This document shows, piece after piece, positions 4,819-22,945 of a stretch of 25,174 nucleotides of DNA. The translations under genes and the position numbers were made by a program. Within the stretch, counting starts at the first letter, position 1; each line of letters begins with the position of its first letter. The stretch is taken from NCBI GenBank assembly GCA_029856105.1, contig JAHQWH010000158.1, positions 1 to 25,174 of the forward strand, read 5' to 3'. The notes beneath the pieces were generated by a model, which worked only from the letters and a program-made list of their open reading frames with translations, searched no databases and was not told where the DNA came from. Source of the DNA: Promethearchaeia archaeon. Its GTDB lineage: Archaea; Asgardarchaeota; Lokiarchaeia; Sigyniarchaeales; SOKP01.

Positions 4819-5178
4819 CTATAAAATATTTGAGGCGTATTGTTCAACTAAATATTCAATTTTACTCGAGTCTAATTGTTCTTTCGCAAGTTCAGGGCAC
4901 ATATGCTCTAAGTGGCACAGTAATTCGTTTAACTCTTCTTCAGCTTCTTTAGGATCTATATTATCTTGATCACTAATAACTATTGAACCCATTAGATGTT
5001 TAGAGCGCTTTAAGATGATAATATTTCCGCTCATTTTTAGCTGGCTAAGTTCAGAATTAAATGATTCTTTTACAAAACTATTAATTGCAGCAAATAATCC
5101 TCCTTGTAAAATATCTGTGTTCGAAGATGATGTTAAAGGTATACCACCTTCATCAAAGATAGTTATAGCTTTTGGAAT
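4819..5178 (-). CDS. Small longin/roadblock-like protein (~119 aa), probable ATT start; longer than the 71-aa ORF-track call
   Basis: The frame stays open 48 codons upstream of ATG 5034 (IPKAITIFDEGGIPLTSSSNTDILQGGLFAAINSFVKESFNSELSQLK) up to an in-frame TGA at 5181-5179. GGAGG lies at 5191-5187. The 'I.IF...G.P' strand and 'L.GGLF.AI.SF' helix resemble Asgard longin-like proteins. Confidence 0.7.
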   Translation of the reverse strand: MPKAITIFDEGGIPLTSSSNTDILQGGLFAAINSFVKESFNSELSQLKMSGNIIILKRSKHLMGSIVISDQDNIDPKEAEEELNELLCHLEHMCPELAKEQLDSSKIEYLVEQYASNIL

Positions 5179-5427
5179 TCAAAAAACCTCCTAACTTACA
5201 TAAAACGCTATAATCCGTAGCCAAAATAATCACTCGATTTTGTATTTTGTAAAGATAAAAATTTTTTGATAACAAAATATTTTTAACTTTTTTTTTGTTA
5301 AACAAAATGTAATAATTTTGTTTTAAAAATAAGGTTTTTTTTCCCATTTTTTGTACTGTTGCCACAAATAATAATTATGTACACAATTTGGGTATAACTT
5401 TCTAAACATAACTTTCTAAGATTTAGA

Positions 5428-6693
5428 CTATTTAGACATAGCTTTCAAAAATTTTGGCCACAAGGTTAATTTTTGTAGCCCGGGTAGAGCACCAAATAAG
5501 CGCTCTCCGACATATCTATCTCTATCCGTGTCGTAATTCCATAAATCTTGGATAGTATGCGCTTCGTACACATATTTTCTAACTGTTTTATTAGTATTTA
5601 ATAAATTAGTATAAGTTGTCCATAAGGTTTTTGCGGAGGTATCATTACTATAAAACAGCAATTCGCAAGCAACGCCATTTCTAAAATAGCCATTTAACAA
5701 AATTCGAGCAATTTCCTGGTCGTATGTTATTAATTCTGGTCTTGAAAAGTTTGAATTGTTTTCTAATAATGGTTTTATGAGCTTTGCTGCGATATCAGCG
5801 CTAGCTAAACCACCTAAAAGTCCTTCGTAAAAGAATGCCGTAACCACTCCTGCGGCCTCTCCTAAGACAATCACGCGGTCTTTAGTCATGGCACTTATTG
5901 GATGTTTTGAAATCCCTCCAGTTGTAAATTTTCCGTCCCATTTCAATCCATTCATAAAAGGTTGAATTTTCTTATAGTTTCTTAGGATTCTAACTAATTT
6001 TTCTTTGAGCTGGTCAGGAGATTCTTTATTTCCTAGATATCCTGTCGAAATCCTACCCTTTCCTACATTAAAAAAGAAGGGGCCATTAGGGCTTATGTTA
6101 GGGTTTAGATGAAACATATATTGAAAGTTAAAATTCTCATCCAGTAGGCTTTCATCAGCGTAGGTGTTAGTATATATTCCCATAAAAGAGTCAGGAACTT
6201 CAAAACCTAACGATTTCTGTAAATTAAATCCACGAGAACCTGTAGCTAAAATTAAAAGTTTACTGGAATAAGATTCTCCTTTATTGTTAATAACCTCAAC
6301 ATAATCACTGTGTTTTACTACTTTTGCCACCTTTTCATTAAAATGCGTTATTCCACCTTGATCTTTAAACTTATCAATAAGCTTTTTAATGAATATTTCT
6401 GTGTGTGAAATCTTTCCTAGTGGTGCACCAAATTCTTTCGAATTCAAAAGACCATCATACTTGTCGCTCTTATAGTTTAATTGGAGAAAAAGTCTTGGAA
6501 AAATTGAATCGTCGTTCCAGAAGACATCGTCAATAAAAGGTTTATTATGTTCTGCAAATATATTTATTCTAACGGGTATTTCCCGATCGTAATCTTGCGA
6601 TTCAATTAGAAGCGTTTTTGCGTACTTTGATGCCTTATACGCTAATGACGCTCCGGAAATCCCAGCACCGATAATAATTATATCGTAATTCAT
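5428..6693 (-). CDS. FAD/NAD(P)-dependent oxidoreductase, geranylgeranyl-reductase-like
   Basis: N-terminal Rossmann motif IIIIGAGISG, ILATG and VIVLGEAAG (GDAAG-like) motifs; 421 aa. Confidence 0.8.
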   Translation of the reverse strand: MNYDIIIIGAGISGASLAYKASKYAKTLLIESQDYDREIPVRINIFAEHNKPFIDDVFWNDDSIFPRLFLQLNYKSDKYDGLLNSKEFGAPLGKISHTEIFIKKLIDKFKDQGGITHFNEKVAKVVKHSDYVEVINNKGESYSSKLLILATGSRGFNLQKSLGFEVPDSFMGIYTNTYADESLLDENFNFQYMFHLNPNISPNGPFFFNVGKGRISTGYLGNKESPDQLKEKLVRILRNYKKIQPFMNGLKWDGKFTTGGISKHPISAMTKDRVIVLGEAAGVVTAFFYEGLLGGLASADIAAKLIKPLLENNSNFSRPELITYDQEIARILLNGYFRNGVACELLFYSNDTSAKTLWTTYTNLLNTNKTVRKYVYEAHTIQDLWNYDTDRDRYVGERLFGALPGLQKLTLWPKFLKAMSK

Positions 6694-6792
6694 TAAATCT
6701 TTAAATTATTAATAAAAAAAAAAGATTATTAAATAGAATTTTAATAGAGCCTCTTAAATTCACTAGTATAGAATACTAATTAGGTCAAAAAA

Positions 6793-7545
6793 TTAAAGAA
6801 TATTTTCGATAGTTTTAATAAATTTATCTAAATTTAGTTCAGCCATACCGAGAGGGACCGAAGAGTCGAATAACACTACGATCAATAATGGATCGAGCTT
6901 CCACGGAATATTAATTTTTCTCGTAAAGATTTTTTGTTCATTATCTAAGCTAACAAATGTCAATTTGAATTCGTTTGCCACCATATGTCTAATTTCTAAT
7001 TCTTTTAAAGAGGATAACAATATATTGTGCGGAAGAGAAGTAAAAATTACTTTTCCATTGATCGTAAATAACGTAGCACCTAATATCTCATTTTCTAACG
7101 TTAATCTCTTAATGAGATCGATAATTTTTCTATATAAAGGTTGACTATCGATCAATTCCTCTTCACCGGTAATAATTGAATCAATTTTAGAGTCGAATTC
7201 GGCGCTTTCGATTTCTTGGTAATCTTCAACTTCGTTGTTCTCTAAAAATTCTTCAAATACATCAACTATACTGACCAAACGGGAATTAATAAACAATAAA
7301 CTAGCACTTGAATCCGCTAAAATAGCATAAATAAATTCCCCACTCACTTTAAAAGCAATTCTAAATCCACCCATTTCGAGAATTTCCGGAGTTTGTTTAG
7401 ATATAACATTTGCTGAGAATGAAAATAACGCTGAAAAAAAGGGTGTAATTAAATTAGGGTCAATATTATCAAAATCGCTCGTTATATTTTTGCTGTAAAT
7501 ACAGATTCCAGTATTTTTTAATATAAAAAGCGAATGGATGTTCAT
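6793..7545 (-). CDS. Longin-like N-terminal domain fused to a roadblock-like C-terminal domain
   Basis: N-terminal MNIHSLFILKNTGICIYSK...NLITPFFSALFSF is a longin-like pattern. C-terminal ILGATLFTINGKVIFTSLP...LLIVVLF...LG resembles roadblock/LC7. Confidence 0.65.
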   Translation of the reverse strand: MNIHSLFILKNTGICIYSKNITSDFDNIDPNLITPFFSALFSFSANVISKQTPEILEMGGFRIAFKVSGEFIYAILADSSASLLFINSRLVSIVDVFEEFLENNEVEDYQEIESAEFDSKIDSIITGEEELIDSQPLYRKIIDLIKRLTLENEILGATLFTINGKVIFTSLPHNILLSSLKELEIRHMVANEFKLTFVSLDNEQKIFTRKINIPWKLDPLLIVVLFDSSVPLGMAELNLDKFIKTIENIL

Positions 7546-7740
7546 CTTGAATTACTCAGAAATTTACTTATAGAAAAATATAAAAAATTTACTCTTTTAA
7601 GTGTTATTAAAAGAAGAATAGTCTACAAATATTGTTAATCTTTATCAAATATAAAAAAAAGTTTAGAATATTTTTCGTTTTTTCGTTCTTATGTTGGGAC
7701 TTTTTTTTCATAATCGCGAGCTTTAAATAGAAGGCTAAAT

Positions 7741-7784
7741 TTTATAAATTAATAAAGTTATGTGATTGTGATGCACTATATCAC
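7741..7784 (+). promoter_or_regulatory. Putative TATA box (TTTATAAA 7741-7748) and downstream inverted repeat GTGAT-N7-ATCAC (7768-7784), a candidate operator
   Basis: Both motifs are read directly upstream of the thioredoxin gene; the function is inferred. Confidence 0.4.
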
Positions 7785-7827
7785 CACTTTAAACATAATT
7801 GTAAACAACACAAAAACGGAAAAGAAA

Positions 7828-8235
7828 ATGTCTGATAATGATTTAGAAAAAATTCGGCTAAAAAAAGCCAAAATGCTGGTAAAATCTCAATCAATGCCAA
7901 CAGAAATAGTTAAAATTCATTCGGCAGAAGAGTTTGATAAATTAACCCAAGATTTCTCTGATAAGGTTATAATAATAGATTTCTGGGCGGTTTGGTGTTC
8001 TCCTTGCCTGATGTTTGCGCCAATATTCGAAAAACTACAAAAAGAACGCTATCAAGATTTTATCTTTGTTAAAGTAAACGTTGACGAAGTCGGTTCTATT
8101 GCTCAAAATTATAGAATTACGGGAATACCTACTACATTATTTATTAAAGATAATAAGGTAATACATAAAATTGTTGGCGCAGTAAACGAAGATTACATGA
8201 ACAGAATCCTGGAAAAACTTCAGTCTTTCGCGTAA
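7828..8235 (+). CDS. trxA: Thioredoxin with an N-terminal 'DLEKIR' extension
   Basis: DFWAVWCSPC active site, KVNVDE, GIPT cis-Pro motif. ATG 7828 (MSDNDLEKIRLKK) is preferred over GTG 7762. Confidence 0.9.
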   Translation: MSDNDLEKIRLKKAKMLVKSQSMPTEIVKIHSAEEFDKLTQDFSDKVIIIDFWAVWCSPCLMFAPIFEKLQKERYQDFIFVKVNVDEVGSIAQNYRITGIPTTLFIKDNKVIHKIVGAVNEDYMNRILEKLQSFA

Positions 8236-8289
8236 TTTGTTTTTTATTTTTTATTTATTAAATAGCAAAATAATTATTAGTGTTAAGCC

Positions 8290-8742
8290 TTGGAAATAGA
8301 AAGTATTTCAGAACAATTAAAAGGTATGTTAGAAGAGAAAAAGATTTTTAAAAGTGGAAAATTGTTTAAATGTATATTAGGACTTAACGTTATAGAATCA
8401 GTTGTGTTTTCCTATCTATTAAAGCACCAAGACGTTAGTACGATGGAATTAACTGAAATATTCAAAAAAGATCGTAGCTCAATTCAAAGAGCTCTCCAAA
8501 CTCTAATTGAAGTTAATGTTATCGAAAGAAAATCAATGTCTTTAAAAGATTTCAGCGAAAAAAAGGATAGAGAAGATAAAACTAAACGTGGATACCTATA
8601 TGTTTACGGAGCAAAAGATTTAGAAATGGTTAAAGCGCAAACTCGCGAATTACTCGATAAGTGGTACGCGTCTATGTTAAACTATATCGAAAATATAGAT
8701 AGTGTCTTTGACTGCTACGAGAAACAAGGAGACCTTTGTTAA
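8290..8742 (+). CDS. Winged-helix transcriptional regulator (TrmB-like archaeal family)
   Basis: CILGLNVIESVVFSYLL, HTH STMELTEIFKKDRSSIQRALQTL, wing motif GYLYVY. Confidence 0.82.
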   Translation: MEIESISEQLKGMLEEKKIFKSGKLFKCILGLNVIESVVFSYLLKHQDVSTMELTEIFKKDRSSIQRALQTLIEVNVIERKSMSLKDFSEKKDREDKTKRGYLYVYGAKDLEMVKAQTRELLDKWYASMLNYIENIDSVFDCYEKQGDLC

Positions 8743-8884
8743 GTTTTAATCTGTATATCTATATTTTTAAACTCTGCCTCTAATGTAAGACTAATTAAAA
8801 TATTGCAATCTAATTCTTTGTGAATTAATTTAAGTTTCAAAGTCTTTTTTAATCTTTTTATAGAATAAAGTTTAAATTTATAGT

Positions 8885-10210
8885 ATGAACGATAATTCTA
8901 AGAAAATGCCGTTATTGTCAATAATTCTATTTGTTTTGATCATTACGCTAATAAATTCAGTATCAAATATGATTTCGCCGAATTTACTCGTGATATCAAG
9001 TTATTTCGGGTTTGGGGGTGATACAGCACCTATTGGAGTGCTTACTTTCTCCTTTATGATTTTTACTGGTGTTACGATGTTAATTTTTGGGTATTTGGCC
9101 GATAAAATCGTTAGAAAATGGATCGTGTTTTTTGGTTCATTAATGTTTTCCATCTTTTCGCTTTTCGTTATAACGGTTCCAACTGGAATTATTGGTTATT
9201 CCATATTTTTCTTCTTAACTATCTTAACAGGAATAGGATACGGCGCATTAATTCCAAGTATTTTTTCGTTAATGGGGGATTTGGTCTCGCGTGAGGATCG
9301 CTCTAAAGGCTTTTCGTTTTTCTCGATCGCATCTTTTTTTGGAATAGTTTTTGGTAGCGCTTTAGCTACATATGCGGGCAGTGCTGATTGGAGATTTCCC
9401 TTTCTATTAATTGGCATTGTTGGAATTCTGGCATCGTTATTATTTTTGCTTTTTAAAGAACCTTCTCGTTTGGGTAAAGATCACTCCTTTGATATAGACG
9501 TTGTCGATTACTCTTATAGGATAAAACTATCAGATGTAAGGATAATTTTTAAAAAGAAAGCTAATATTTGGTTAGTCGTTAATTTTGTAGATACGATTCC
9601 GACCGGTATTATACTAACATTACTTTACGCATATATGGAAGTATATCATGGAATTACCGCTGATGTGACTGTGCTAATTTTCTTAATCATCCTCGTAAGT
9701 ATCATACTTGGAACTTTAGTGTTTGGGTATATTGGAGACAAGAAGTTTAAAAAAGGCAATAAAAAAGCGAGGGTTCTTTTAGCGTTATTTGGCAACATTG
9801 CTCCTATTCCATTTCTATTCGCCGCATTGATTATTCCGTTTAGCGCTCCTAATTTATTTCCTGGTTTAATAATTTGGATCGTACTATTCAGTATTGGAAT
9901 GTTTACAAATGGAGCAGTAAATGGGAACTGGTACGCCACAGTCGTAGACTTAAACCTACCAGAAAACCGTGGGACTGTGTTGGCAACCTCAAATTTCTTT
10001 GACATCATTGGTCGAGCCATTGGTCCTTTAATCGGAACCATTATCGCAGATATATTCGGTTTTGTTATTGGAATGATGATTTCAATTTTCTTTTGGATTT
10101 TTATTCCCTTTTTCTGGATTCCAGTCCTTAAAAATGTCGTAAGAGAAATTGAATCTACCGAGAAAATATTTGACGAGAGAATAAAATCTTTAGCTAAAGT
10201 TAAAGACTAA
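8885..10210 (+). CDS. Major facilitator superfamily transporter
   Basis: About 12 hydrophobic segments; motif A-like GYLADKIVRK and GYIGDK; PENRG loop. Confidence 0.92.
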   Translation: MNDNSKKMPLLSIILFVLIITLINSVSNMISPNLLVISSYFGFGGDTAPIGVLTFSFMIFTGVTMLIFGYLADKIVRKWIVFFGSLMFSIFSLFVITVPTGIIGYSIFFFLTILTGIGYGALIPSIFSLMGDLVSREDRSKGFSFFSIASFFGIVFGSALATYAGSADWRFPFLLIGIVGILASLLFLLFKEPSRLGKDHSFDIDVVDYSYRIKLSDVRIIFKKKANIWLVVNFVDTIPTGIILTLLYAYMEVYHGITADVTVLIFLIILVSIILGTLVFGYIGDKKFKKGNKKARVLLALFGNIAPIPFLFAALIIPFSAPNLFPGLIIWIVLFSIGMFTNGAVNGNWYATVVDLNLPENRGTVLATSNFFDIIGRAIGPLIGTIIADIFGFVIGMMISIFFWIFIPFFWIPVLKNVVREIESTEKIFDERIKSLAKVKD

Positions 10211-10282
10211 TACTTAAAAAATCCTTTTTTTATAATTATCAAATTTGTTTTTTCATTTAGCTTAAGAAAAAAAAATAAAGAT

Positions 10283-10684
10283 TTAAAATGGTAAAACGAT
10301 TAAGTTAATACTAAATAGCATCTCCAGCAATAAAGCAACAATTATATAGAGTATAAAAGCTATAACTGTAACCAATATCGCTCCTAAAAATCCAACATGG
10401 TGCCGTCCGCTAATAATTAACCACGCAGCAATTAAAACTATGAGCCAAGCTAACCAACCACCCAGAAACAGAAATGTAAGAGCGTAAATAATGGTTATGA
10501 TGAAGGATGTTATAAAGACTTGTCCGAATTCTGTGTGTCTCGCACTACTGAAAATATTTAAGGCAAGCTTAAGAAAGATCGCCATTATAATAAGAAAGAT
10601 CAAATAAAAAATAAGAAACCACATTATTCCTTCAAGACTGCTAAACATTTGAGCCCAATCTTCGTTAAAAATTTCAAATATCAT
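10283..10684 (-). CDS. Small integral membrane protein of unknown function (~4 TM)
   Basis: 133-aa, strongly hydrophobic ORF filling the gap between neighbouring genes. Confidence 0.75.
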   Translation of the reverse strand: MIFEIFNEDWAQMFSSLEGIMWFLIFYLIFLIIMAIFLKLALNIFSSARHTEFGQVFITSFIITIIYALTFLFLGGWLAWLIVLIAAWLIISGRHHVGFLGAILVTVIAFILYIIVALLLEMLFSINLIVLPF

Positions 10685-10883
10685 ATGAAAACCTTGTTTT
10701 TAAGTATATTAAATATGATCTTTTTTAAAATTTCATGAATATTTAATTTATCCATTATTTAAAATTCTAAAACAATTTATTGATTTTTTAGCTACTCCTA
10801 TTTTGATTGATAAATGAAGATTTTTAAATAACATTCTATATTTCTAGTTTTTATTAGGAGAAAATTTTTTGAATGGATGTATT

Positions 10884-11858
10884 ATGACAAAAGAGAAAAA
10901 ACAAAAGAAACAGGTTAATGAAAGTTACGATTTATCCGATAAGGACGAATATAGCCACGATTGGGGCAATTTTCCTCCATTCCATAATGAGAGTTGGTAC
11001 TTCAATTTTATTGATCGGCCAAATAACGTTTTTTTAGTTACGAGATTATCTTACCACATGGATAAAAAAAAGTCTCTGGTTTTAGTTTTGCTGATAATTG
11101 ATGGTAAGGCTAGAGTTTATTTTCAGGAAATTCCTCTTGAAAAAATGCCTGCTAATACTTGGGAAATCGATAAGAAAATAAAATATTACTGCGTCAAACC
11201 AATGAAGCAATGGACAATTAAATTCATAAATAGTCAAATTGATTTAAATGTCAACCTTGAGGGAAGGTTTCCAGTATTTAATTCAGCTGCGGGTATGGAT
11301 CCCTTAGCATTTCTTAAGGAGGACTATACTAACACAGAGCTAGTATTTGCTCAAATGCATTATGAGCAACCTATGATAGCGACAGGAACTTTGATCATGA
11401 AGAAAAAGGGGGAAGTAATTGAAACGCGAACCATTAAAGGTTTCGGTCATCGCGATCACAGCTGGGGCATTAGAGAGTGGGGCGGGATTGATTCGTGGAA
11501 TTGGGTTGTTGCCCAGTTTGAAGATGAGACAATTAATTTTTACAAAGCTGAAGCCCTTGGTGAAGTAAAACAAGATGGAATAATTTATTCTGAAGGCGCT
11601 GATAATATTAGAATAGAAAAAATAGAAGTGACAACAGAAACGAAAGAAGACGAAAAAACGCCTGTTTCATCAACATTTATCATAACGGATGAAAATGGAA
11701 AGAAAAGAACCATAGAATCAAAAACAATATTTTCGCAATATTTACCTCTTCCATCCGAGAAAGGATTAACTGAAATTTACGAACAAGTAGCAATATTCAC
11801 TTTCAATGGTAAAGAAGGCGATGGTATTTCGGAGTACTTATCCACAACGCGGGATTAA
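10884..11858 (+). CDS. Tocopherol-cyclase/AttH-like beta-barrel protein of unknown substrate
   Basis: Motifs HNESWYFNF, HYEQ, GFGHRDHSWGIREW, WNW. The start could be ATG 10884 or TTG 10869. Confidence 0.7.
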   Translation: MTKEKKQKKQVNESYDLSDKDEYSHDWGNFPPFHNESWYFNFIDRPNNVFLVTRLSYHMDKKKSLVLVLLIIDGKARVYFQEIPLEKMPANTWEIDKKIKYYCVKPMKQWTIKFINSQIDLNVNLEGRFPVFNSAAGMDPLAFLKEDYTNTELVFAQMHYEQPMIATGTLIMKKKGEVIETRTIKGFGHRDHSWGIREWGGIDSWNWVVAQFEDETINFYKAEALGEVKQDGIIYSEGADNIRIEKIEVTTETKEDEKTPVSSTFIITDENGKKRTIESKTIFSQYLPLPSEKGLTEIYEQVAIFTFNGKEGDGISEYLSTTRD

Positions 11859-12054
11859 CGCGCTATGAGTTAAAGTTTGAGCTTTTTTTTCATTTTATTT
11901 CTTATTATCATTAAATGTTCTGTTTTTATATCTATTTATGAATAAATATTGTGAGACAGTATAATGCTATTAGAAACCGTTGGTTGAAGATAGCAGGCTT
12001 ATATATACAATATTCACTTTATATTTCATCAAAATAATTTGAGGTAAAGGTAAG

Positions 12055-12084
12055 ATGCCAGGAACTGCTGATGCTACTCCTTAA
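12055..12084 (+). CDS. Candidate 9-aa peptide MPGTADATP
   Basis: ATG CCA GGA ACT GCT GAT GCT ACT CCT TAA, preceded by GAGGTAAAGGT (12041-12051). GC-richer than the surrounding intergenic DNA. Confidence 0.3.
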   Translation: MPGTADATP

Positions 12085-12087
12085 ATG

Positions 12088-12154
12088 TTTCTCCCGCATT
12101 TTGGGTTAGAAAATAACCCGAAGCGGGAAAACCATATTTTTTCCCTTTTTTTTT
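12088..12154. terminator. Strong GC-rich hairpin (12088-12131) followed by T-tracts; terminator/stability element or small structured RNA
   Basis: TCCCGC/GCGGGA and GGGTTA/TAACCC arms around a GAAAA loop, then two T-runs on the + strand; lies between convergent genes. Confidence 0.5.
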
Positions 12155-12168
12155 GTAAGTATGATTAA

Positions 12169-13536
12169 CTATTCATCTTGTAAATTATAATAAAAGGGGT
12201 CTAATTTTTGGGCTTTTCTGGTCCTAAACATTCGCGTAAGAAAGGGATGTACCCCTTCGTATTTTTCTAAAGCTATAATTTGCAATTTCTCTGCTTCTGT
12301 TTCAGCTAGGTTAGACTTTATTTTTTTCCCTAATTTATAAATGTAAAACTTTATTTTATCTTTGTCCACTAAGTTGGTTTTTAATGGTTTACCCTCGGCA
12401 TAGTCAAAAGCCCAAGTCCAGTTAAATTTATCTTCTATATCTGCGTATTGGGCGTATACACCTAAGACGATATTAGCATAAAGGTTACTCCCAATCATCA
12501 ATTTTTTAGTAAAGTTCCATTTCGATATATCAATATATAATTCTTTCGTGGCATTTTTTGCAAATTTCGATAGTTCCTCTAAGATATTAAGCGAAAGAGG
12601 TTTTAATTCACCTAGATAATCAGGATATCTAAGATCTTTTGGGTGCGATAATTCTCTTGTCCAAATCCCTATTGATGTTATGTTTGAAGAATAATCGGTT
12701 GGATCGGCAAATAAAGTGCTCCAATCATTAAACTCGATTTTTTTCATATCTTTTAGCGTCATTCCAAATATCACATTTGAAAACGGTGCAATCTCGCTGA
12801 TTTTATATGGCATATTTCCAGACATATCTAATCCATACATTACATCCCCAGTGTATAGTTCTATGAATTCTTTGAATATTAAAGGTTCAGTGTTGTCTTT
12901 AAAATAATATGGTCCATGCTCAGATATAGTAAATCTACACTCGGCTTGGGAAAGGAAACTATAGATGGTTAAATGGGCGATGGTTTGCTTTAAACGCTTG
13001 GTTATCTCTTTATTATTATTTATAGGGATCATATTACCTTTTAATTTTTCAATATAGTCGTCAGAAAGACATGTAAGTCTTTTATTTTTTAATATTAAAG
13101 TCTCGTCATTGAGATAATTAGGGCTCAATCTTTTCCAAAAGTCAAGAACGAATTTAGTTTCTTTTTTCTTCGTTTCTGGCTCTACAACGATATTAGTTTC
13201 GCCACCTTTTTTTTTATTTAAGTTATCATAAATAACTTGAGCTCGACCATGCAAATACAACATACCTGTAGAATAAAAACCCAAATGGTTTAATCCTGGG
13301 CCTAAGGATTTCGATCTTCTGGCGATTTCCTCAGGCGATATCTTACTTGCAACTTCTTTTAAGATATTATATAAATAAGATTGATCGTATAAAATATAAC
13401 AAGCAACATGAATGTAGTGCGATACCGGAAACATTTTACTTTCAACCATTCCACGATTTAGAAGATTTGCTACAGTGGTCTTAGAAATCAACGCGATTAG
13501 TTCATTTGCTTCTTGGTCGCTAATATCACCTAACAT
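12169..13536 (-). CDS. Hypothetical protein (455 aa), candidate substrate-binding subunit of a split dikinase
   Basis: Long ORF with AGGAG SD, directly downstream of and co-oriented with the phospho-His domain gene. No family motif recognised. Confidence 0.8.
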   Translation of the reverse strand: MLGDISDQEANELIALISKTTVANLLNRGMVESKMFPVSHYIHVACYILYDQSYLYNILKEVASKISPEEIARRSKSLGPGLNHLGFYSTGMLYLHGRAQVIYDNLNKKKGGETNIVVEPETKKKETKFVLDFWKRLSPNYLNDETLILKNKRLTCLSDDYIEKLKGNMIPINNNKEITKRLKQTIAHLTIYSFLSQAECRFTISEHGPYYFKDNTEPLIFKEFIELYTGDVMYGLDMSGNMPYKISEIAPFSNVIFGMTLKDMKKIEFNDWSTLFADPTDYSSNITSIGIWTRELSHPKDLRYPDYLGELKPLSLNILEELSKFAKNATKELYIDISKWNFTKKLMIGSNLYANIVLGVYAQYADIEDKFNWTWAFDYAEGKPLKTNLVDKDKIKFYIYKLGKKIKSNLAETEAEKLQIIALEKYEGVHPFLTRMFRTRKAQKLDPFYYNLQDE

Positions 13537-13629
13537 ATAAACAACTCCTTATAATTTGATTTTTTAATTACTTAAACTCATTTTCTAAATATAATATTTT
13601 TAAATTTAAATGGAAAATAATTTTGTTAA

Positions 13630-13986
13630 TTACTCAAGTAAATAAATAATCCCCTTGTCTTCACTTTCCGTAACTATTTTTCCCTTTTTCCCAGTCAGTG
13701 AGGACAAATCGTCTATTAAAAATTCTACAGTCATTATGCAAGGTATTTCGAATTCTCTTGAAACTATGGCGAGATGTGAGCCTACAGAACCGAGTGAGCA
13801 TAATACTCCTGCTAAATCTGATAAAATTGGACCAAGAGTAGTAGAACCAGAATCTTCGACTATACATATTTTCCCGTTGGCATCATCAAATATATTTATT
13901 ACATCTTCAACAGATTGGATAAACACAAATTCCCCTATTACTTCTGAATTGGAAGAACAAGATGCACCTTCCCCTATTTTTTTCAT
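13630..13986 (-). CDS. Stand-alone PEP-utilising enzyme mobile (phospho-histidine swivel) domain
   Basis: GSVGSHLAIVSREFEIPCIM matches the G.G..SHaAIvaRE.giP signature with the catalytic His; only 118 aa. Confidence 0.88.
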   Translation of the reverse strand: MKKIGEGASCSSNSEVIGEFVFIQSVEDVINIFDDANGKICIVEDSGSTTLGPILSDLAGVLCSLGSVGSHLAIVSREFEIPCIMTVEFLIDDLSSLTGKKGKIVTESEDKGIIYLLE

Positions 13987-14190
13987 TTAAATCAACTAAA
14001 AATTATATTTTAAAATAATATCAATCTATTATTTTTTAAATTTATAGTTATTTATCGTAGTTATTTTAATTTTTTATTTACAATTTTAGAAATTTTTACA
14101 TAAATATATAATGTTTTACCTTATCTTAGAAACTAAATATTTAAAAATTTAGTAAACAAATTATATTATTTACTATTTTAAAGAACATCG

Positions 14191-15174
14191 ATGATAGAAT
14201 CAGAATTCGTTGTATTTTTTCCAGAAGCAAAGCCTAATACTGCTTTATTAGGGGGAAAAGGTTCTAATTTAATCAAATTAATTAAGATGAAAGCAAAAGT
14301 TCCCCCCGGATTTATAATCAATACCAATTGTTTCAAGAAATTTCTTAATGAATCGAAATACTACGACCAATTGAGTAAATTATTGGCAAAGAACTTAAAT
14401 CCAAAAGAAATTTTACGCCATTCAGCCAAAATTACGAGATTAATATTGGAATCAAAAATTCCGAAAAAAATAATTGAAAGCATCGAAGTAGCTTTAGATA
14501 AATTGGTTAAGGGAAAGGATATAGGCTTATCTTTTGCCGTAAGATCTTCAGCAACAATCGAGGATTCAAGCAAATTCTCCTTTGCCGGACAAGCAGAGAG
14601 TTTTTTACACAATCTTACTTTACATGATTTATTACAATCGTTAAAAAATTGCTGGGCATCTTTATTTTCACCTAGTTCAATATTATATATGCTTCATATG
14701 AGAAAGTTGGGCGTAAATTTCTCGTTGAAGAATGTTCATATGGCAGTTATTGTTCAACAAATGGTTAATTCACAAATATCAGGAGTTTTATTTACATCTA
14801 ACGTGATCAATAACGATTCAAACCAAATGTTGATTAATTCCACATGGGGGCTTGGTAATACGATTGCTGATAATTTAATTATCCCGGATTCTATTGTAAT
14901 TAAGAAGAGTAAATTTGAAGTTTTAAAAAGGATTATCGGTAAAAAAAAGAAAAAGTCGATTAAAAACCCTGAAGGCGCCCATACTGTTATGGTAGAAAAC
15001 TACCCAAAATCAAGGACTATTTGCTCTTTAAACGATAATCAACTGCGCCAACTTCATAATTTAGGATTAAAAATTGAAAAAGAATTTAATTTTCCTCAAG
15101 ACATTGAATGGGCCATAGAAAACGATGAAATCTACATATTACAAAGCCGCCCAATCACTACATTAAAAAAGTAA
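14191..15174 (+). CDS. Stand-alone ATP-grasp domain of the PEP synthase/pyruvate phosphate dikinase family (PPDK_N)
   Basis: GGKGSNL, VPPGF, AVRSSATIEDSSKFSFAGQ, MAVIVQQMV, SGVLFT, QDIEWA, LQSRPIT. It stops right after the domain, with no His domain. Confidence 0.92.
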   Translation: MIESEFVVFFPEAKPNTALLGGKGSNLIKLIKMKAKVPPGFIINTNCFKKFLNESKYYDQLSKLLAKNLNPKEILRHSAKITRLILESKIPKKIIESIEVALDKLVKGKDIGLSFAVRSSATIEDSSKFSFAGQAESFLHNLTLHDLLQSLKNCWASLFSPSSILYMLHMRKLGVNFSLKNVHMAVIVQQMVNSQISGVLFTSNVINNDSNQMLINSTWGLGNTIADNLIIPDSIVIKKSKFEVLKRIIGKKKKKSIKNPEGAHTVMVENYPKSRTICSLNDNQLRQLHNLGLKIEKEFNFPQDIEWAIENDEIYILQSRPITTLKK

Positions 15175-15253
15175 GCAATTAAAATTAACTTTTTCATGAA
15201 TTAAATTAATATTAAAAGAAAAAAAGAGTTTTATTTTTATTAAATTTGATTAA

Positions 15254-16045
15254 TTAAATACCGATATCCCACTTTAGAAAAGAATACGGAAAGAATTTTT
15301 CTTGTTCTAATTCTGCTACTACATATCCCTTTTTCATAGAGTTATCTCCCTTTAAATACGCAGCACCTAATATTCTTACCACCTCTATTTCGCCCCAAGG
15401 ATCGCTCTCAGATGACCTTAATGTAATTTCTGCGTTCCCCAGTTTTAATTCCTTAGGTCTTAATAGAACCTCTTCTCTTATTAACCGCGGGTTGTAATCA
15501 AAACCCTCACCATCTGGAGAAGGAAAGTGCTTAAAATTATATATTACTGTCACAATTTCAGAGCCATCACCAATTGTGCCAGTAAAAAGCTCCATAGCAT
15601 CAGGTGCATTTAATCGACCGTTCAGTTTTGCCTTCACTTCGAAATATCGCGTTCCTTGGCGCTCTATCCATCCTTCAACGATTCTCTTTTCGCGTTTAAG
15701 ATAGAGATCTGCCATTTTTTTTGGATATCCAAATACTTCTCGACCAGCGACTAACGCTTGGTCGTCTGTAACTGGCATCGATAGGCAATAGCTTCCTTCT
15801 ACACCGTCATATTCTGCACTTAAAAAAAGAGCGCCTTCGTTATATGTCACTCCGAAATTTGTTTTAGGATAATAAGCGATAAACGCGTTAGCAATTGGAG
15901 TGCTTGTAGGTTTTAACGGTGGCGGCAGCAATCGTTTTATTATTTCGGGTTTTGTCTCCCAATAGACGACCAGCATTTCTGCGTCGTAGAAGTCAGCGGT
16001 TTCTCTTTTAGTCATAAACCCGCCCGAAGATCTTAAAAAACTCGT
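15254..16045 (-). CDS. Acetoacetate decarboxylase-like (ADC superfamily) protein, copy 2; probable ACG start (ATG 16015 is the alternative)
   Basis: LLPPPL, YNEG, GREVFGYPKK Schiff-base Lys motif. The frame extends to ACG-AGT-TTT-TTA-AGA-TCT, 7 nt after GAGGTGA. Confidence 0.85.
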   Translation of the reverse strand, partial: TSFLRSSGGFMTKRETADFYDAEMLVVYWETKPEIIKRLLPPPLKPTSTPIANAFIAYYPKTNFGVTYNEGALFLSAEYDGVEGSYCLSMPVTDDQALVAGREVFGYPKKMADLYLKREKRIVEGWIERQGTRYFEVKAKLNGRLNAPDAMELFTGTIGDGSEIVTVIYNFKHFPSPDGEGFDYNPRLIREEVLLRPKELKLGNAEITLRSSESDPWGEIEVVRILGAAYLKGDNSMKKGYVVAELEQEKFFPYSFLKWDIGI

Positions 16046-16132
16046 TTTATTTTCACCTCAAATTAGATTTTTACTGATACTATTATTAATATTTCAATTT
16101 TTAATTTAATATTACTGGATTGATTATTTATT

Positions 16133-17347
16133 TTATGACAATGCTTGATCTATTAGTTCCATGAGATCAACCATCTTAATATTTGAATTTAAAGCGGTTA
16201 TTGCATCCATTAGATTTCTATAACAAAACGGACATATACTCACAAGATAATCTGCGCCAGTCTCCTCAGCTTCCTGAACTCTAGTCTTAGCAACTTCTAA
16301 TGCTAAATCGGGAAAGCCTTTCTTTACGCCTCCCCCAGCTCCGCAACATTTAGCGTTCTCTTTAATCGTTTTCATCTCGGTCAAATTAGATATTTTTGAT
16401 AGTATCTCTCTTGGTTCTTCGTAAATCGGTGAAAGGCCAGAATTTCTTCCTGTATGACAGGGGTCGTGATAGGTCGTATTAATTTCTAAATTCTTAAGAG
16501 TTATATCTTTTTCCTCTAAAAAAGATTTAATATACTCGATTGTATGAAGCACTTTAATTTCTATGTCCTCAATAAAGTCAGCGTAGTCTATTTTTAAAGT
16601 CCTGTAACAACCTGCGCAACTCGTAATTATAGTTTTAACGCCACTTTTTTTGAATAACTCGTAGTTTTTCACAGCCACTGAATTGAATGTTTTCATATCC
16701 CCAGTTCTCTTACCTACGCTTCCGCAACATACTTCATGTTCTCCAAAAATAGAAAAATCAACTCCAAGTTTACGAAGTACTTTTGCTGTGTTTATAGCTA
16801 CTGGTTGAATTTCTGGAGTTAGAGCAGCAGTGCATCCAACAAAATAAAGCACATCCGCTTTTTCAGAATAGGCATTTTTTACCTTAAAATCAAGTTTTTC
16901 AATCCAATTACTTTTCTCTTTATTATCTCTCTGATATGGATTTAATAAATCAACCATTGCCTGATTCATTGGTATGTGTGCTTCCAGACCACAACCCGCG
17001 TCTATTAATTCTGCTCTTAAAGCCTCGTAAATAGTTGCGTTATCCATATCATAGGCGCAAGCTTCAGAGCACGCGTTACAAGTTGGACATTGATAAATTA
17101 CTTCAGCCATATCTTTGCTCAGCTCTAATTTTCCTTGCCAAAGAGAGCGAATAATTTGCATTTTTCCTCTTCCAAAGAAAGCTTCAAAGCCAGATGTGTG
17201 ATCTCTTGCCACGCAAACGCCCCATTTTTGGGGATCTGAAGTATAATCTGTAGCTTCTCGACAATCTCCACAACTGATACATTGTAAAATTGTCGGACCG
17301 ATTTTGCTTAAATGTTTAAACTTTTCGTTAGGATTTATTTCAGTCAT
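16133..17347 (-). CDS. Fe-S oxidoreductase with N-terminal 4Fe-4S motifs and two CCG domains (GlcF/HdrD-like)
   Basis: CISCGDC, CPTCNACSEAC, YFVGC, EVCCG, TSCAGC, YHDPCH, CCGAGGG, SICPFC. Confidence 0.92.
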   Translation of the reverse strand: MTEINPNEKFKHLSKIGPTILQCISCGDCREATDYTSDPQKWGVCVARDHTSGFEAFFGRGKMQIIRSLWQGKLELSKDMAEVIYQCPTCNACSEACAYDMDNATIYEALRAELIDAGCGLEAHIPMNQAMVDLLNPYQRDNKEKSNWIEKLDFKVKNAYSEKADVLYFVGCTAALTPEIQPVAINTAKVLRKLGVDFSIFGEHEVCCGSVGKRTGDMKTFNSVAVKNYELFKKSGVKTIITSCAGCYRTLKIDYADFIEDIEIKVLHTIEYIKSFLEEKDITLKNLEINTTYHDPCHTGRNSGLSPIYEEPREILSKISNLTEMKTIKENAKCCGAGGGVKKGFPDLALEVAKTRVQEAEETGADYLVSICPFCYRNLMDAITALNSNIKMVDLMELIDQALS

Positions 17348-17358
17348 ATTATTTCCAT

Positions 17359-18894
17359 CTACTCTTTATTTTTAATAATATTTTGTGTTATATCGTTATC
17401 GTAACTATACATATGAAATTTATTTGGAGACAATAAAAAATCAGGGTCTACAACCCTTTTCATATCTTTAAATAATCGTAGAAATTCGGGAGTATAAGCG
17501 TTGGCTTCTACTATTGATTGAGAGATCGATTCTCCTAACCAATAATGTACACCTCCATACTGAACCTGATATATTACCTTTTTATGCCATATATCCATAG
17601 CGACTTGACGCTGATCATCTACATTTTCGGCATTAAAACCACCAGCAAAAATACAATGACCATTAGGTAATAAATGGATTGATCTGGCGAATAACGAAAA
17701 ACTTTGAGCCGGGAAATTACCTGTATTTTCGTTATCAAACAACTCGTTTAACTCTTTCTTATCTGCTATTGATGAAATTGGGATTTTATGACAAGTTGTA
17801 CATGATATCTTAGGAGGCGCTAACGAGATGAATTTGTTAAAATAGCTATAGGGAAACTTAAAATCGAACTTCCAGTCCTTAGCTAATTTTAAATCTAGAT
17901 CGATTTCTGTCCATTCAAAAGGTCTTGCAACATTATCTTTAGTCATTATTCTATTTACTTGTTCAATATAGACGTCCAAAATTCGCTCGTCAAACGCTTC
18001 AAGTATAAACATAAAAACAGGTCCACTAAGTCTAGCTCTTTTTGGAGGTCGGATTTTAGCTTGGGAAGCTAAGAGTTGTACTACTACGCGTGGGTTTATA
18101 TAAAGATCGTGTATTCCGTCTTTAACTTCTTTTTGTAGTTCATACATTAATTCAAAAACTTTATTGTAATCGTCTTTTTTCAGTATGTAATTCTTCTGTA
18201 TCTTATAAGGCGAATTAGGGAATAACCTTAAAGAACATTTAGTTTTAATGCCCATAGTTCCGGCATCTCCCATAAATAGCCCCGTAAAATCGGGAGCAAC
18301 GCCGTACCTACAAAAAGGTTTTGAGTACTTATTAGCTGCAGCCCCAGTCCAAATTATCGTGCCTTGTGGATTTAGTAATACCACCTCAACACCTAAACAA
18401 ATGTTTGGAACTAAACCATATTTAGTGGACCCAAAACCAGCGGTGCTGTTAGAAAGCCCTCCTCCAATTGTTGCTGAAAATCCACTTCCGGGACCGAGTA
18501 CTCCTGTCGTTAAATCTTTTTTGTATAGTTCTGATAGTAAAGCCCCCCAGGTTACTCCACATTCTACCTCACAATAGAAATCCTTTTCATTTATTTCAAT
18601 AATTTTATTCATCCGCGTAAGATCAATAAGGATTCCCCCTTCAATTGTCGCACCTCCAACTAAATCGGCCCCTCCTCCTCGCGGTACTATAGGAATTTTA
18701 TATTTATTAGCAATTTTTACAATATCTGAAACTTCTTCCGTATTCTCTGGACGTACTATAATATCAGCCCATCTATCAGGAAAGGCAGGATCAACGTTTC
18801 TAGAATAGGCAGCTTTCATAAAATCTTTATTAGTGATATATTCTGTTCCAACCGCTATTTCAATTTCTTTGTATACCTTATCAATTTTGGACAT
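17359..18894 (-). CDS. FAD-binding oxidoreductase (FAD_binding_4 / GlcD-VAO superfamily), copy 2
   Basis: IVRPENTEEVS, PRGGGADLVGG, IDLTRMNKI, ATIGG, FMGDAGTMGI, C-terminal KRVVDPDFLLSP. Confidence 0.92.
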   Translation of the reverse strand: MSKIDKVYKEIEIAVGTEYITNKDFMKAAYSRNVDPAFPDRWADIIVRPENTEEVSDIVKIANKYKIPIVPRGGGADLVGGATIEGGILIDLTRMNKIIEINEKDFYCEVECGVTWGALLSELYKKDLTTGVLGPGSGFSATIGGGLSNSTAGFGSTKYGLVPNICLGVEVVLLNPQGTIIWTGAAANKYSKPFCRYGVAPDFTGLFMGDAGTMGIKTKCSLRLFPNSPYKIQKNYILKKDDYNKVFELMYELQKEVKDGIHDLYINPRVVVQLLASQAKIRPPKRARLSGPVFMFILEAFDERILDVYIEQVNRIMTKDNVARPFEWTEIDLDLKLAKDWKFDFKFPYSYFNKFISLAPPKISCTTCHKIPISSIADKKELNELFDNENTGNFPAQSFSLFARSIHLLPNGHCIFAGGFNAENVDDQRQVAMDIWHKKVIYQVQYGGVHYWLGESISQSIVEANAYTPEFLRLFKDMKRVVDPDFLLSPNKFHMYSYDNDITQNIIKNKE

Positions 18895-18930
18895 GATTCA
18901 ATATTAACGAATAATAGATTTGTAATATAA

Positions 18931-19731
18931 TTAATACCAATCCCATTTGAGAAACGAATAGGGTAAAAAATCTGTTTGATCTACCTTAGCAACAACCTCT
19001 CCAGGAAGCATAGTATTGTCTGTTTTAAGATATAACGCGCCTAGTACCTTTACTACTTCAACTTCAGCCCATGGATCGTGCACAGTTGAGTTTAATTTTA
19101 TTTCTGCTACACCCATTTCCATTGATTTTGGACGAACCGAAGTTTCTTGCTTAACTAACCACGGATCGTAATCAAAACCCTTTTTATTAGGTGCTGGAAA
19201 GTACTTGAAGTTATAATTAATCGTATTTCTCTTTCTTCCCGGAAGAAGACCCAACTCTTTTATGATACTTGGCGTTTCGCTATCGTTGAATTTACCGGTT
19301 AATTTTACTTTAATTTCAATATTCTTAACTCCAAGACGCTCAGACCAAGCTTCAACATCTTTATCCTTTCGATGAAAATGTATTTTAGCTATTTTTTTGG
19401 GGAATCCAAAAATCTCCCGACCTCCAATCATCGCTCGATCGTCGTCAACGGGCATAGCTAAGTAATAATTTCCCTGTAAGCCATTATATTCACATCTTAA
19501 CGTCAAAGCACCTTCAAAATACGGTAATCCTTGATTGGTACTAGGGTAATTTGCTATAAATGACATAACTACGGGTCTACTAACAGGCTTTAAAGGAGGG
19601 GGTAAAATCTTTTCGACTATCTCAGGTTTAGTTTCCCATAAAACGGTTATCATTTCAGCACTTTTAAATACGCTCGTCCTTAACCTTTCTTTTCTCTCTT
19701 CTATCTCTTTTATTGAACGCTTAAAACTAAT
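18931..19731 (-). CDS. Acetoacetate decarboxylase-like (ADC superfamily) protein, copy 1; probable ATT start
   Basis: ILPPPL, YFEG, GREIFGFPKK. The frame extends 26 codons upstream of ATG 19653 to ATT-AGT-TTT-AAG-CGT-TCA, 6 nt after AGGTGA. Confidence 0.85.
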   Translation of the reverse strand: MSFKRSIKEIEERKERLRTSVFKSAEMITVLWETKPEIVEKILPPPLKPVSRPVVMSFIANYPSTNQGLPYFEGALTLRCEYNGLQGNYYLAMPVDDDRAMIGGREIFGFPKKIAKIHFHRKDKDVEAWSERLGVKNIEIKVKLTGKFNDSETPSIIKELGLLPGRKRNTINYNFKYFPAPNKKGFDYDPWLVKQETSVRPKSMEMGVAEIKLNSTVHDPWAEVEVVKVLGALYLKTDNTMLPGEVVAKVDQTDFLPYSFLKWDWY

Positions 19732-19741
19732 TTTAAATCAC

Positions 19742-21277
19742 CTAATTTTCCTCTTTTACAAAATGTTCTGATAAATCGTGATCATAACTATACATGTGAA
19801 ACTTTTTTGGACTTAACAAGTAATTTGGATCTACAGCTTTTTTCATATCTTTGAAAAATTGAATAAATCCAGGCGTATAGGCATTAGCTTCAACTATAGA
19901 TTGAGAGATTGCTTCTCCAAGCCAATAATGTACGCCTCCATATCGTACTTGAAGACGTAGCTTTTTGTGCCACATTTTCATGGATTTTTCGCGTTGTTCA
20001 TCTATGTTATCGGCATTGAATCCACCTACAACTACACAATTACCGTTAGGTAAAAGAAATATAACTGTTGCAAATAATGCAACACTTTGTGGTGGATATT
20101 CATCCCGGTAGTTAATATCAAATTGATCGCTTAAATTTGCTACTTTATGTAAAGCAGAAATTGGAACTTTATGACAAGTGGTACACGATATTTTCGGCGG
20201 GGCTACCGATATAAATTTATTAAAGTAGTGATAGGCATATTTTAAATTAAATTCCCAATCTTTGGATAGAGGCGCTTCTGGATCAATTTCTTGCCATTCA
20301 AACGTTCGAGCATCGTCTTTCATAAGATTTTCAATTTGTTCAAGGTAAACATCTAGCACCCGCTCATCTGTAGATTCCACCAATATCGAAAAAACCGGCC
20401 CTTTTAATCTCGGTCTTTTAACTGGTTTATTTTCCACCATACCTGCCATTAATTGAACTACAACAATAGGAATTACAAGTACATCGTGTAATCCGTCCCG
20501 TACTTCTTTCCGTAATTTATACAAGAGCTCAGAAACTTTATTATAATCGTTCTTCTTTAACATGTAATATCGCTGCGCTTTAAACGGTGTCTCGGGATGC
20601 AATCGTAGGAAAGCTTTAGTCTTAATACCCATAGTTCCTACATCCCCCATAAATAATCCCGTAAAATCGGGAGCCACCCCATATCTACAAAAAGGCTCTG
20701 CGTATTTATTAGCTGCTGCTCCTGTCCTAATTATCGTTCCTTGTGGATTTGGTAAAACTACTTCGACACCTAAACAAATGTCAGGAATAACACCGTATTT
20801 TGTGGATCCAAAACCAGCAGTACTATTAGAAAGGCCCCCTCCGATAGTAGCAGAATAACCGCTCCCAGGACCGAGTACTCCTGTTGTTAAACCTTGTTTT
20901 TGTAATTCCGATAGCAACTCACCCCATGTTATTCCACATTCTACCTCGCAATAGTAATCCTTTTCATTGATTTCAATAATTTTATTCATTCGCGTAAGAT
21001 CAATTAGGATCCCCCCTTCGCTTACAGACCCCCCTACGAGATCTGCGCCACCACCTCTCGGAATCATTGGGATTTTGTACTTATTAGCGATTTTTACGAT
21101 TTCAGAGACCTCTTCAGATGATTCTGGCCTCACTATAATATCTGCCCATCTATCTGGAAACGCCGGGTCAACATTTCGAGAATATGCCGCCTTCATAAAA
21201 TCTTTGTCTGATATAAAATCGGAACCGATTATTCCCTCTATTTCCTTATACGCATCCTTTACTTTTGACATTATCAT
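19742..21277 (-). CDS. FAD-binding oxidoreductase (FAD_binding_4 / GlcD-VAO superfamily), copy 1
   Basis: Same motifs as 17359-18894, with long near-identical blocks (KDFMKAAYSRNVDPAFPDRWADIIVRPE; FCRYGVAPDFTGLFMGD). The start may be ATG 21271. Confidence 0.92.
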   Translation of the reverse strand: MIMSKVKDAYKEIEGIIGSDFISDKDFMKAAYSRNVDPAFPDRWADIIVRPESSEEVSEIVKIANKYKIPMIPRGGGADLVGGSVSEGGILIDLTRMNKIIEINEKDYYCEVECGITWGELLSELQKQGLTTGVLGPGSGYSATIGGGLSNSTAGFGSTKYGVIPDICLGVEVVLPNPQGTIIRTGAAANKYAEPFCRYGVAPDFTGLFMGDVGTMGIKTKAFLRLHPETPFKAQRYYMLKKNDYNKVSELLYKLRKEVRDGLHDVLVIPIVVVQLMAGMVENKPVKRPRLKGPVFSILVESTDERVLDVYLEQIENLMKDDARTFEWQEIDPEAPLSKDWEFNLKYAYHYFNKFISVAPPKISCTTCHKVPISALHKVANLSDQFDINYRDEYPPQSVALFATVIFLLPNGNCVVVGGFNADNIDEQREKSMKMWHKKLRLQVRYGGVHYWLGEAISQSIVEANAYTPGFIQFFKDMKKAVDPNYLLSPKKFHMYSYDHDLSEHFVKEEN

Positions 21278-21326
21278 CTATTATAAGATAGAACTTGTGA
21301 ATTAATAAAAGTATATGAAAAAAAAA

Positions 21327-22112
21327 TTATTTTAATTTCTTGACTCGTTTAGCTATTTTCTTTTTAACATCTTCGTAAGAAGGCGGGGGTCCAGTTCTAA
21401 TCTCCTTCTCGTCAATAAAAAGCGCATCAGCAATTCCCCACTCCAAAAAAGTCTCCCTATTGAATGTATCTATTTCTGTGAAAACTACTTTATCTCCAAA
21501 TTCGGAAGCTGCTCTTTTTGCTCTTTCAAAAACTATATTTTGAGCAGGGCACCAGCCATTTATAAACGAAGTCACTGATACCTTCCCTGGTATTTTTTTG
21601 GGCTTTTTTTTCTGCCTTATCATTTTAGGCGGAATAGCATCGTTGGAAAAAGGTTTCCATAGTAAAACGCTTATACTCTGCTTATCAACTTTAACATATC
21701 CTTGCTTTTTAAACCAAGAAGCTCTCATAAAAACGGGTATAGAAAGCCCCCATGCTACTAATCCTTTCGCACCCTTACCCCTTACATCCTCTTCAGCAGC
21801 TCTTATTAAAGCCTTACCAATTCCTTTCTTCTGGAAGTTTCCAACTCCTTCTTTGTAGCCGTGTACCCAGATACAATTTATAAAGTATAAATTATCGCCT
21901 TCTGCGGTTGAATATTCAAGAGGAACGTATTGTATCATTCCCACTACTTTGTCGTCCTCAGTCACAGCAATTTTAACTCCAAGCCCTTTGTCTTTCATTT
22001 TATTATACCAAAGCTCCTTGTGATCCCCTGCTTCTTTCATCTCGTCGCTCCAATCTTCAAGACACATAAAATAAAGTCCGTTATATTTTTCCTCTAAATC
22101 AATTATTTTCGT
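21327..22112 (-). CDS. GNAT acetyltransferase with a C-terminal thioredoxin-like (YoaP-like) domain; probable ACG start
   Basis: Acetyl-CoA motif FQKKGIGKALI, FINCIWV, WFKKQGY; C-terminal GWCP. The frame extends 15 codons upstream of ATG 22067 to ACG-AAA-ATA-ATT-GAT-TTA. Confidence 0.85.
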   Translation of the reverse strand, partial: TKIIDLEEKYNGLYFMCLEDWSDEMKEAGDHKELWYNKMKDKGLGVKIAVTEDDKVVGMIQYVPLEYSTAEGDNLYFINCIWVHGYKEGVGNFQKKGIGKALIRAAEEDVRGKGAKGLVAWGLSIPVFMRASWFKKQGYVKVDKQSISVLLWKPFSNDAIPPKMIRQKKKPKKIPGKVSVTSFINGWCPAQNIVFERAKRAASEFGDKVVFTEIDTFNRETFLEWGIADALFIDEKEIRTGPPPSYEDVKKKIAKRVKKLK

Positions 22113-22209
22113 AAAACATCACTCTCCTAAGTATTGGATTTGTTTAAATAAAACTTAATGAATATATAAATATCTAACAATAAAAACTTATCATATATTA
22201 AATAAGTCT

Positions 22210-22560
22210 TTACATCCACGAAGCTATCTTTGGAGTTTTCGCTAAAATATCGACGAGAACATCGTATTCAATACAATTTATTCTCGTGTCAACTGATTCT
22301 GGGTCAATCCCACGCGCTAAAAGGTCGGGTGTCATCGCAAATACGGTTATGGGCAGATTTAGTAATAAATTTAAAGAACTGGGCATCACTCCCTTTTTAG
22401 AGGTTCCTATAACTCCGTCGTGGATTAAAACAACAGTGACATTTGCGTCTTTAATCTGTTCCTTTATTATATTAAATAGATTATCTATGGACGTACTTTT
22501 TCTCGTGCTAAATCCAAAAAGGTACACCAATTTATTTATATCTTCCATTTGTACAACCAT
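22210..22560 (-). CDS. DsrH/TusB-like sulfur relay subunit
   Basis: VVLIHDGV, DLLARGI, IEYDVLVDIL, C-terminal SW; third gene of a DsrEFH-like trio. Confidence 0.82.
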   Translation of the reverse strand: MVVQMEDINKLVYLFGFSTRKSTSIDNLFNIIKEQIKDANVTVVLIHDGVIGTSKKGVMPSSLNLLLNLPITVFAMTPDLLARGIDPESVDTRINCIEYDVLVDILAKTPKIASWM

Positions 22561-22572
22561 AATCCCATCACA

Positions 22573-22941: not shown

Positions 22942-22945
22942 TAAT

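Follow-up and report, generated by a model that had tools for sequence, protein, structure and literature searches.

The window analysed here, a stretch of 25,174 nucleotides, corresponds to contig C158 of a draft Lokiarchaeia genome (3.66 Mb in 238 contigs, 32% GC), and at 90% identity its proteins fall into the same clusters as those of Promethearchaeota (Lokiarchaeota) archaeon Loki_b31. A sequence-only reading had proposed that four of its minus-strand genes start at near-cognate codons, ATT at 5178 and 19731 and ACG at 16045 and 22112, each behind a Shine-Dalgarno (SD)-like word, with ATC at 318 as a possible fifth case. The codons, the SD-like words and the strand of the four sites are as described, with spacers of 8, 6, 7 and 6 nt, respectively, and in-frame TGA stops are found 0, 2, 4 and 2 codons upstream.

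The gene coding for a GNAT acetyltransferase (21327-22112, minus strand) specifies 261 residues when counted from the ACG at 22110-22112, and its first ATG is located 15 codons downstream. The SD-like word GGAGAGTGA (22119-22127, minus strand) precedes the ACG by 6 nt, and the TGA within that word is the in-frame stop. The match to Pfam PF00583 starts at residue 19. In the start column of the alignment, ACG is found in four species, and the other loci have ATG (19) or TTG (4), two being shifted by one codon. The N-terminal extension contains no non-synonymous changes over four comparisons. An out-of-frame ATG that overlaps the SD-like word was dismissed, as an orthologue with an in-frame ATG has it too. 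The same part of the window harbours a DsrE, DsrE, DsrH sulfur-relay trio (22210-23314) and an IS605-family TnpB / Cas12f-like gene (23474-24661; PF01385, PF07282).

Two genes of the acetoacetate-decarboxylase (ADC) family, both with predicted near-cognate starts, belong to a tandem duplicated cassette (15254-21277) that also comprises genes for two FAD-binding oxidases of 511 residues each and a CCG/Fe-S subunit. ADC gene 1 (18931-19731, minus strand) codes for 266 residues from the ATT at 19729-19731, its first ATG being 26 codons downstream. Its SD, AGGTGA (19738-19743, minus strand), is separated from the ATT by 6 nt and overlaps the TAG stop codon of the upstream FAD-oxidase gene, so that the translation of the two genes is possibly coupled. 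The PF06314 match of the protein starts at residue 21, i.e. upstream of the first ATG. Six species have ATT in the start column and a seventh has GTT; the paralogues have ATG there, and their products begin with M-S/G-F. The GTT-containing orthologue, from a congener (locus L067), has an intact AGGTGA and no canonical alternative; GTT has two mismatches relative to ATG and one relative to GTG. ADC gene 2 (15254-16045, minus strand) codes for 263 residues from the ACG at 16043-16045, 10 codons ahead of the first ATG, with the SD GAGGTGA (16053-16059, minus strand) at a distance of 7 nt. Six species have ACG in the start column, three more distant orthologues have ATG, and a 263-residue allele with ATG (P0038) is present in databases. 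The neighbouring region (13630-15174) codes for divergent stand-alone PPDK_N (327 residues) and PEP-utiliser (118 residues) proteins, which resemble a split PEP synthase.

Errors in sequencing or assembly, or pseudogene decay, might have made ATT or ACG from ATG, as two of the five genes (those with the codons at 5178 and 318) are truncated and the genome is a draft of 238 contigs. Nevertheless, each of the five sites recurs unchanged in other public assemblies of the same population (8, 10, 6, 6 and 3 contigs), and thus they are not errors. The weak codons are common to four to six species that differ from each other at 9-31% of four-fold sites, which indicates that they last over real divergence, and the pattern extends to the essential genes for uS4 and aIF1. 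The chance that errors or decay account for the observations therefore appears negligible, and for the GNAT gene and the two ADC genes this explanation is already refuted. These three genes are intact, and given the in-frame stops 2-4 codons upstream they have no canonical alternative ahead of the near-cognate codon. In the comparison of orthologous starts, the codons at 22112, 19731 and 16045 align with the ATG of homologues, and the codon at 5178 is internal in its orthologues. Judged by their alignments, three of the four headline cases thus hold. The systematic N-terminal mis-annotation that had been anticipated is also borne out: the Loki_b31 orthologues of the GNAT, ADC 1 and ADC 2 proteins appear in public records with 246, 240 and 253 residues rather than 261, 266 and 263, and these calls are short by 15, 26 and 10 residues, respectively.

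The gene callers picked those ATGs, 10-26 codons downstream, and translation might indeed begin at downstream ATG, GTG or TTG codons, the conserved extensions being untranslated leaders. In line with this, synonymous changes are scarce in the extensions, which could reflect constraint at the RNA level too. However, they align residue for residue with the coding N-termini of homologues, the Pfam match of the ADC protein precedes the ATG, and the spacing of the SD targets the near-cognate codon. Together with what downstream starts would remove from uS4 and aIF1 (see below), this makes untranslated leaders very unlikely.

The two remaining candidate genes are broken. The frame at 4819-5178 (minus strand, 119 codons, ATT at 5176-5178) is the orphaned C-terminal domain of an Arf-like GTPase, its orthologues being GTPases of 300 residues that carry this region as their C-terminal domain. 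The ATT at 5178 therefore occupies, by alignment, an internal position of a gene that lost its front half, rather than an orthologous start. The GTPase half is gone in the source species and in one sister, which retains an in-frame ATG. The SD-like word AGGAGG (5187-5192, minus strand, spacer 8 nt) lies inside what is left of the GTPase coding sequence, now scrambled and decayed; the word is found in this species only and is absent from all orthologues. Neither stops nor indels interrupt the orphan domain, whose private changes comprise eight synonymous and six non-synonymous ones (p 0.008 versus neutral), with only two synonymous and three non-synonymous in the first 47 codons. The region 4819-5300 represents a gene fission that left a C-terminal domain intact and under apparent purifying selection. 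We consider the odds about even that this ATT is a newly recruited start.

At the other end of the window, and on the plus strand, a 3'-truncated alpha/beta hydrolase gene (318-575; PF00561) codes for 85 residues, versus 262-274 in full-length homologues, from an ATC behind GGTGG. The initiator column of 38 homologues comprises ATG (11), ATA (12), ATC (7), ATT (7) and TTC (1), and several copies have a stop immediately upstream of this column. The suggested fifth case can thus be retained in part: the column matches that of the homologues and points to an inherited start, but in-frame TTG (306) and GTG (309) codons lie within the SD-like word. An in-frame GTG in the SD offers an alternative start in some other copies as well. 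Although the window copy is truncated, this family is the clearest case, its tree requiring at least six to seven switches between ATG and ATH. Anti-SD pairing is stronger in the ATH copies, with a median of -8.7 kcal/mol versus -2.7 kcal/mol for the ATG copies (Mann-Whitney p 4e-5, a value overstated since kin are not independent).

Essential genes show similar starts. The start column of uS4 has ATC in three family genomes (the source genome and two congeners), ATA in two and ATG in six, and a single genome from a different Asgard family has ACG there. Initiation at the next canonical codon would deprive uS4 of its first 22 residues. The Pfam S4 model misses the uS4 protein of the source genome. 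For aIF1, no canonical codon precedes the zinc knuckle in any of 30 family genomes; all 30 have an invariant ATT/ATC located 9 nt past a GG-GTGA word, and the nearest stops are one codon upstream. In the source genome, the first GTG occurs about 40 codons into the gene, and an aIF1 made from a downstream start would lack both the zinc knuckle and loop 1. Among 30 other Asgard aIF1 genes, ATA or CTG is the likely start in five and ATG or GTG is found in the rest, and aIF1 starts with ATG in the five non-Asgard genomes. Thus, a codon with a single mismatch stands at the initiator Met column of homologues in the GNAT gene, both ADC genes, uS4 and aIF1, and does not do so at 5178.

To estimate the genome-wide rate, we collected long ORFs that have an SD of 5 nt or longer. 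Such an SD precedes ATG, GTG or TTG in 450 of them, and 77 others have the SD but no canonical start; at 55 of these 77 sites, ATT, ATA, ATC, ACG or CTG is present in frame. ORF 5' ends that lack a canonical start but carry an SD of 5 nt or longer contain 69 near-cognate codons versus 18.9 expected from out-of-frame positions, a 3.6-fold excess (Poisson p about 6e-19), and ATT alone accounts for 32 versus 4.7 expected. When the SD spans 6 nt or more, the proportion of sites with a near-cognate codon reaches 24/26. AAG and AGG behind the SD are not enriched (7 versus 4.2 and 0 versus 2.1, respectively). Half of the near-cognate codons (43/86) have a spacer of 6-7 nt, inside the canonical peak, and other codons are low there. 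Corrected for chance, the total comes to about 36-45 genes (7-9% of the strongly SD-led genes), and the share among all genes of the source genome is probably 2-8%. Relaxed start-codon selection in the lineage, as first proposed, is thus supported; the rate of 4 in about 25 genes (16%) on which the proposal was founded is too high.

Three other approaches were set aside. A 61-codon EM start model classified 2805 starts, among which ATG (1937), TTG (280), ATT (132), ATA (88), GTG (75), ATC (28), CTG (19) and ACG (14), but its near-cognate share of 10% is inflated, because small non-Asgard controls (300-400 kb) also give 3.8-5.7%; it was not used as a rate. A homologue check of the 55 candidates, in which 23 of 27 had a canonical codon within two codons, was too loose, as it flags 5178 too, and an unfiltered positional profile was too noisy.

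We found an equal excess in another genus of the same family (8 candidates versus 48 canonical starts). Smaller excesses characterize two other genomes, which we take to be Odin-like (8 versus 142) and Heimdall-like (6 versus 76). In the Odin-like genome, the SD-led near-cognate starts include those of what, from their N-termini, are presumably genes for an aspartyl-tRNA synthetase (ACG) and a hisH-like protein (CTG). There is no clear excess in the small non-Asgard controls of 400 kb and 294 kb, Geothermarchaeum (4 versus 136) and Nitrosothermus (2 versus 30). Such starts could nevertheless be a pan-archaeal feature that has been overlooked, with the Lokiarchaeia at the upper end of the range rather than special. 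The convincing cases in the Odin-like and Heimdall-like samples and the one or two plausible ones in Geothermarchaeum are in keeping with it, as are the putative alternative sites of Haloferax, about 30% of which are near-cognate (PMC7261190). Conversely, the source genome differs from the pooled non-Asgard controls (55:450 versus 6:166, Fisher p 0.003), and the aIF1 genes of all five non-Asgard genomes begin with ATG and those of most other Asgard with a canonical codon. We regard the pan-archaeal explanation as rather unlikely, although it carries more weight than any other alternative considered here. In this sample, which comprises small controls and no cultured Lokiarchaeia, the trait is strongest in this Lokiarchaeia family and patchy elsewhere.

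We then looked at the initiation machinery. The anti-SD GATCACCTCCT, read from the 16S rRNA of the same genus as that of the source genome is unassembled, is standard, and the SDs are complementary to it, at the canonical distance (peak at 6-7 nt) and stronger in the hydrolase ATH copies. The source genome codes for aIF1A and for the alpha, beta and gamma subunits of aIF2. Few tRNAs are assembled, and the single match to an initiator tRNA has a standard CAU anticodon arm, like those of 11 congeners. No defect was found in aIF1, aIF1A, aIF2 or the anticodon arm of the initiator tRNA of the source genome. In the search for a defective aIF1, loop 1 and the net charge proved normal and only the beta-1 strand divergent, with no molecular cause of leniency. 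That strand reads QIIISND in the family versus RIKIRLE, and the SUI1 scores of the family are among the lowest of the phylum. The proposed bearing on initiation fidelity is thus supported only indirectly, by the ATT/ATC start of aIF1 itself, and not by any lesion in the machinery. The aIF2-gamma gene, outside the window (contig C65, 16805-18346), codes for 525 residues including an N-terminal helix-hairpin-helix (HHH_5) domain and a linker. Frames of 519-540 residues are found in 5 of 11 family genomes, one genome of a sister family and one other Asgard, most others having about 400-480 residues. HHH_5 has 16 matches on about 14 frames genome-wide, which suggests a promiscuous fusion domain in the lineage.

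Taken together, these data make it highly probable that this Lokiarchaeia family practises SD-compensated initiation at near-cognate codons with its ordinary Met-tRNAi machinery. Very probably, a few percent of the family genes, including those for uS4 and aIF1, start at ATT, ATA, ATC or ACG. The ordinary complex (30S, aIF1, aIF1A and aIF2-GTP-Met-tRNAi) would accept the single-mismatch codons AUU, AUA, AUC, ACG and CUG. Pairing of the SD with the anti-SD would park such a codon in the P site at the optimal distance of 6-7 nt, where Met-tRNAi would be accepted at lower efficiency; we infer both steps from the spacing and from the SD trade-off. The protein would then begin with Met, probably at reduced yield. 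As SD strength trades off with the start codon, genes would move back and forth many times between two states, ATG behind a weak SD and ATH behind a strong one. In archaea, aIF1 proofreads against non-AUG starts (PMC6237735), and its synthesis from its own ATT/ATC start most likely establishes a negative feedback that keeps stringency at a permissive level. Analogy with infC (PMC4705826) and Staphylococcus aureus (PMC13009471) suggests both this feedback and the reduced yield. By extension, feedback on aIF1, as an archaeal equivalent of infC and eIF1 autoregulation, may lower stringency so that several percent of genes use near-cognate starts to tune their expression, and new starts may arise from internal codons after gene fission, possibly as at 5178. 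This broader scenario is tentative, and we rate it at slightly under even odds.

Plant organelles edit ACG to AUG, and mitochondria have a tRNA-Met that reads AUA. C-to-U editing of the mRNA, or a dedicated or modified initiator tRNA for which AUH is cognate, of the type seen in animal mitochondria, therefore has precedents, and ATT, ATA and ATC do predominate here. However, C-to-U editing is unable to mend ATT, ATA or ATC, and the sole initiator tRNA match has a standard CAU arm at the DNA level, among the few tRNAs assembled. Furthermore, the dependence on strong SDs and narrowly set spacers argues that the codons are weak rather than cognate. Editing or an altered tRNA is thus very improbable, if marginally less so than initiation at downstream codons.

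Near-cognate primary starts in prokaryotes are thought to number a few genes per genome. Dozens of them in a lineage that stands near the ancestor of eukaryotes, with uS4 and aIF1 among the genes concerned, would bear on the evolution of start-codon fidelity, and the aIF1 start of the family makes it possible to test archaeal aIF1 autoregulation directly. On the practical side, Asgard proteins in databases are N-terminally truncated, as illustrated by three examples here, which harms heterologous expression and structural work. Such a truncation has already spoiled work on an Asgard tubulin (PMC13394414).

SD sequences are described in reviews as rare in Lokiarchaea (PMC12993045). The searchable literature yielded no genome-scale report of near-cognate starts, and one Asgard gene with an ATT start, Kariarchaeaceae AtubA, noted for its 'rare ATT start codon' (PMC13394414). 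As here, its ATT lies behind a ribosome-binding site and its GenBank entry is truncated, but it is a single Heimdallarchaeia gene mentioned in a methods section, with no genome-wide pattern reported. In Haloferax volcanii, ribosome profiling placed archaeal ribosomes on near-cognate putative sites, which were set aside as possible false positives (PMC7261190). Those are alternative sites, in contrast with the conserved, sole available primary starts predicted in our study. In eukaryotes, eIF1, which is homologous to aIF1, autoregulates through an AUG in poor context (as discussed in PMC6237735), and thus both factors appear to have a deliberately weak start. The eukaryotic set of non-AUG starts (CUG, ACG, AUU) is also similar, with AAG and AGG excluded. 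Nevertheless, eukaryotic initiation relies on scanning and on an AUG in Kozak context, whereas in this family the near-cognate codon itself would be used, positioned by the SD.

The closest parallels are bacterial. infC, which codes for IF3, has an AUU/AUA start with autoregulation, and Escherichia coli pcnB starts with AUU (PMC4705826; PMC13009471). In both infC and the family studied here, an SD directs a near-cognate start, and the gene of the proofreading factor itself uses a weak codon. However, IF3 and aIF1 have unrelated folds, and bacteria have a handful of such genes, as opposed to the dozens predicted here for each genome, among which ATG and ATH are often exchanged. infC is autoregulated, and the weak, conserved start of aIF1 suggests that its gene may be too. 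In S. aureus, cvfC1, ccpN and citZ have AUU/AUA starts behind extended SD motifs and about 10% of the AUG output (PMC13009471), and the weak codon is likewise offset by a strong SD. The whole Ribo-Ret map of that bacterium contains four such sites, compared with about 36-45 predicted from sequence here, where the machinery is archaeal and ACG is also used. The sequence-level features of infC/cvfC1-type initiation are present, and the starts described here apparently represent a lineage-wide, unpublished form of this known mechanism.
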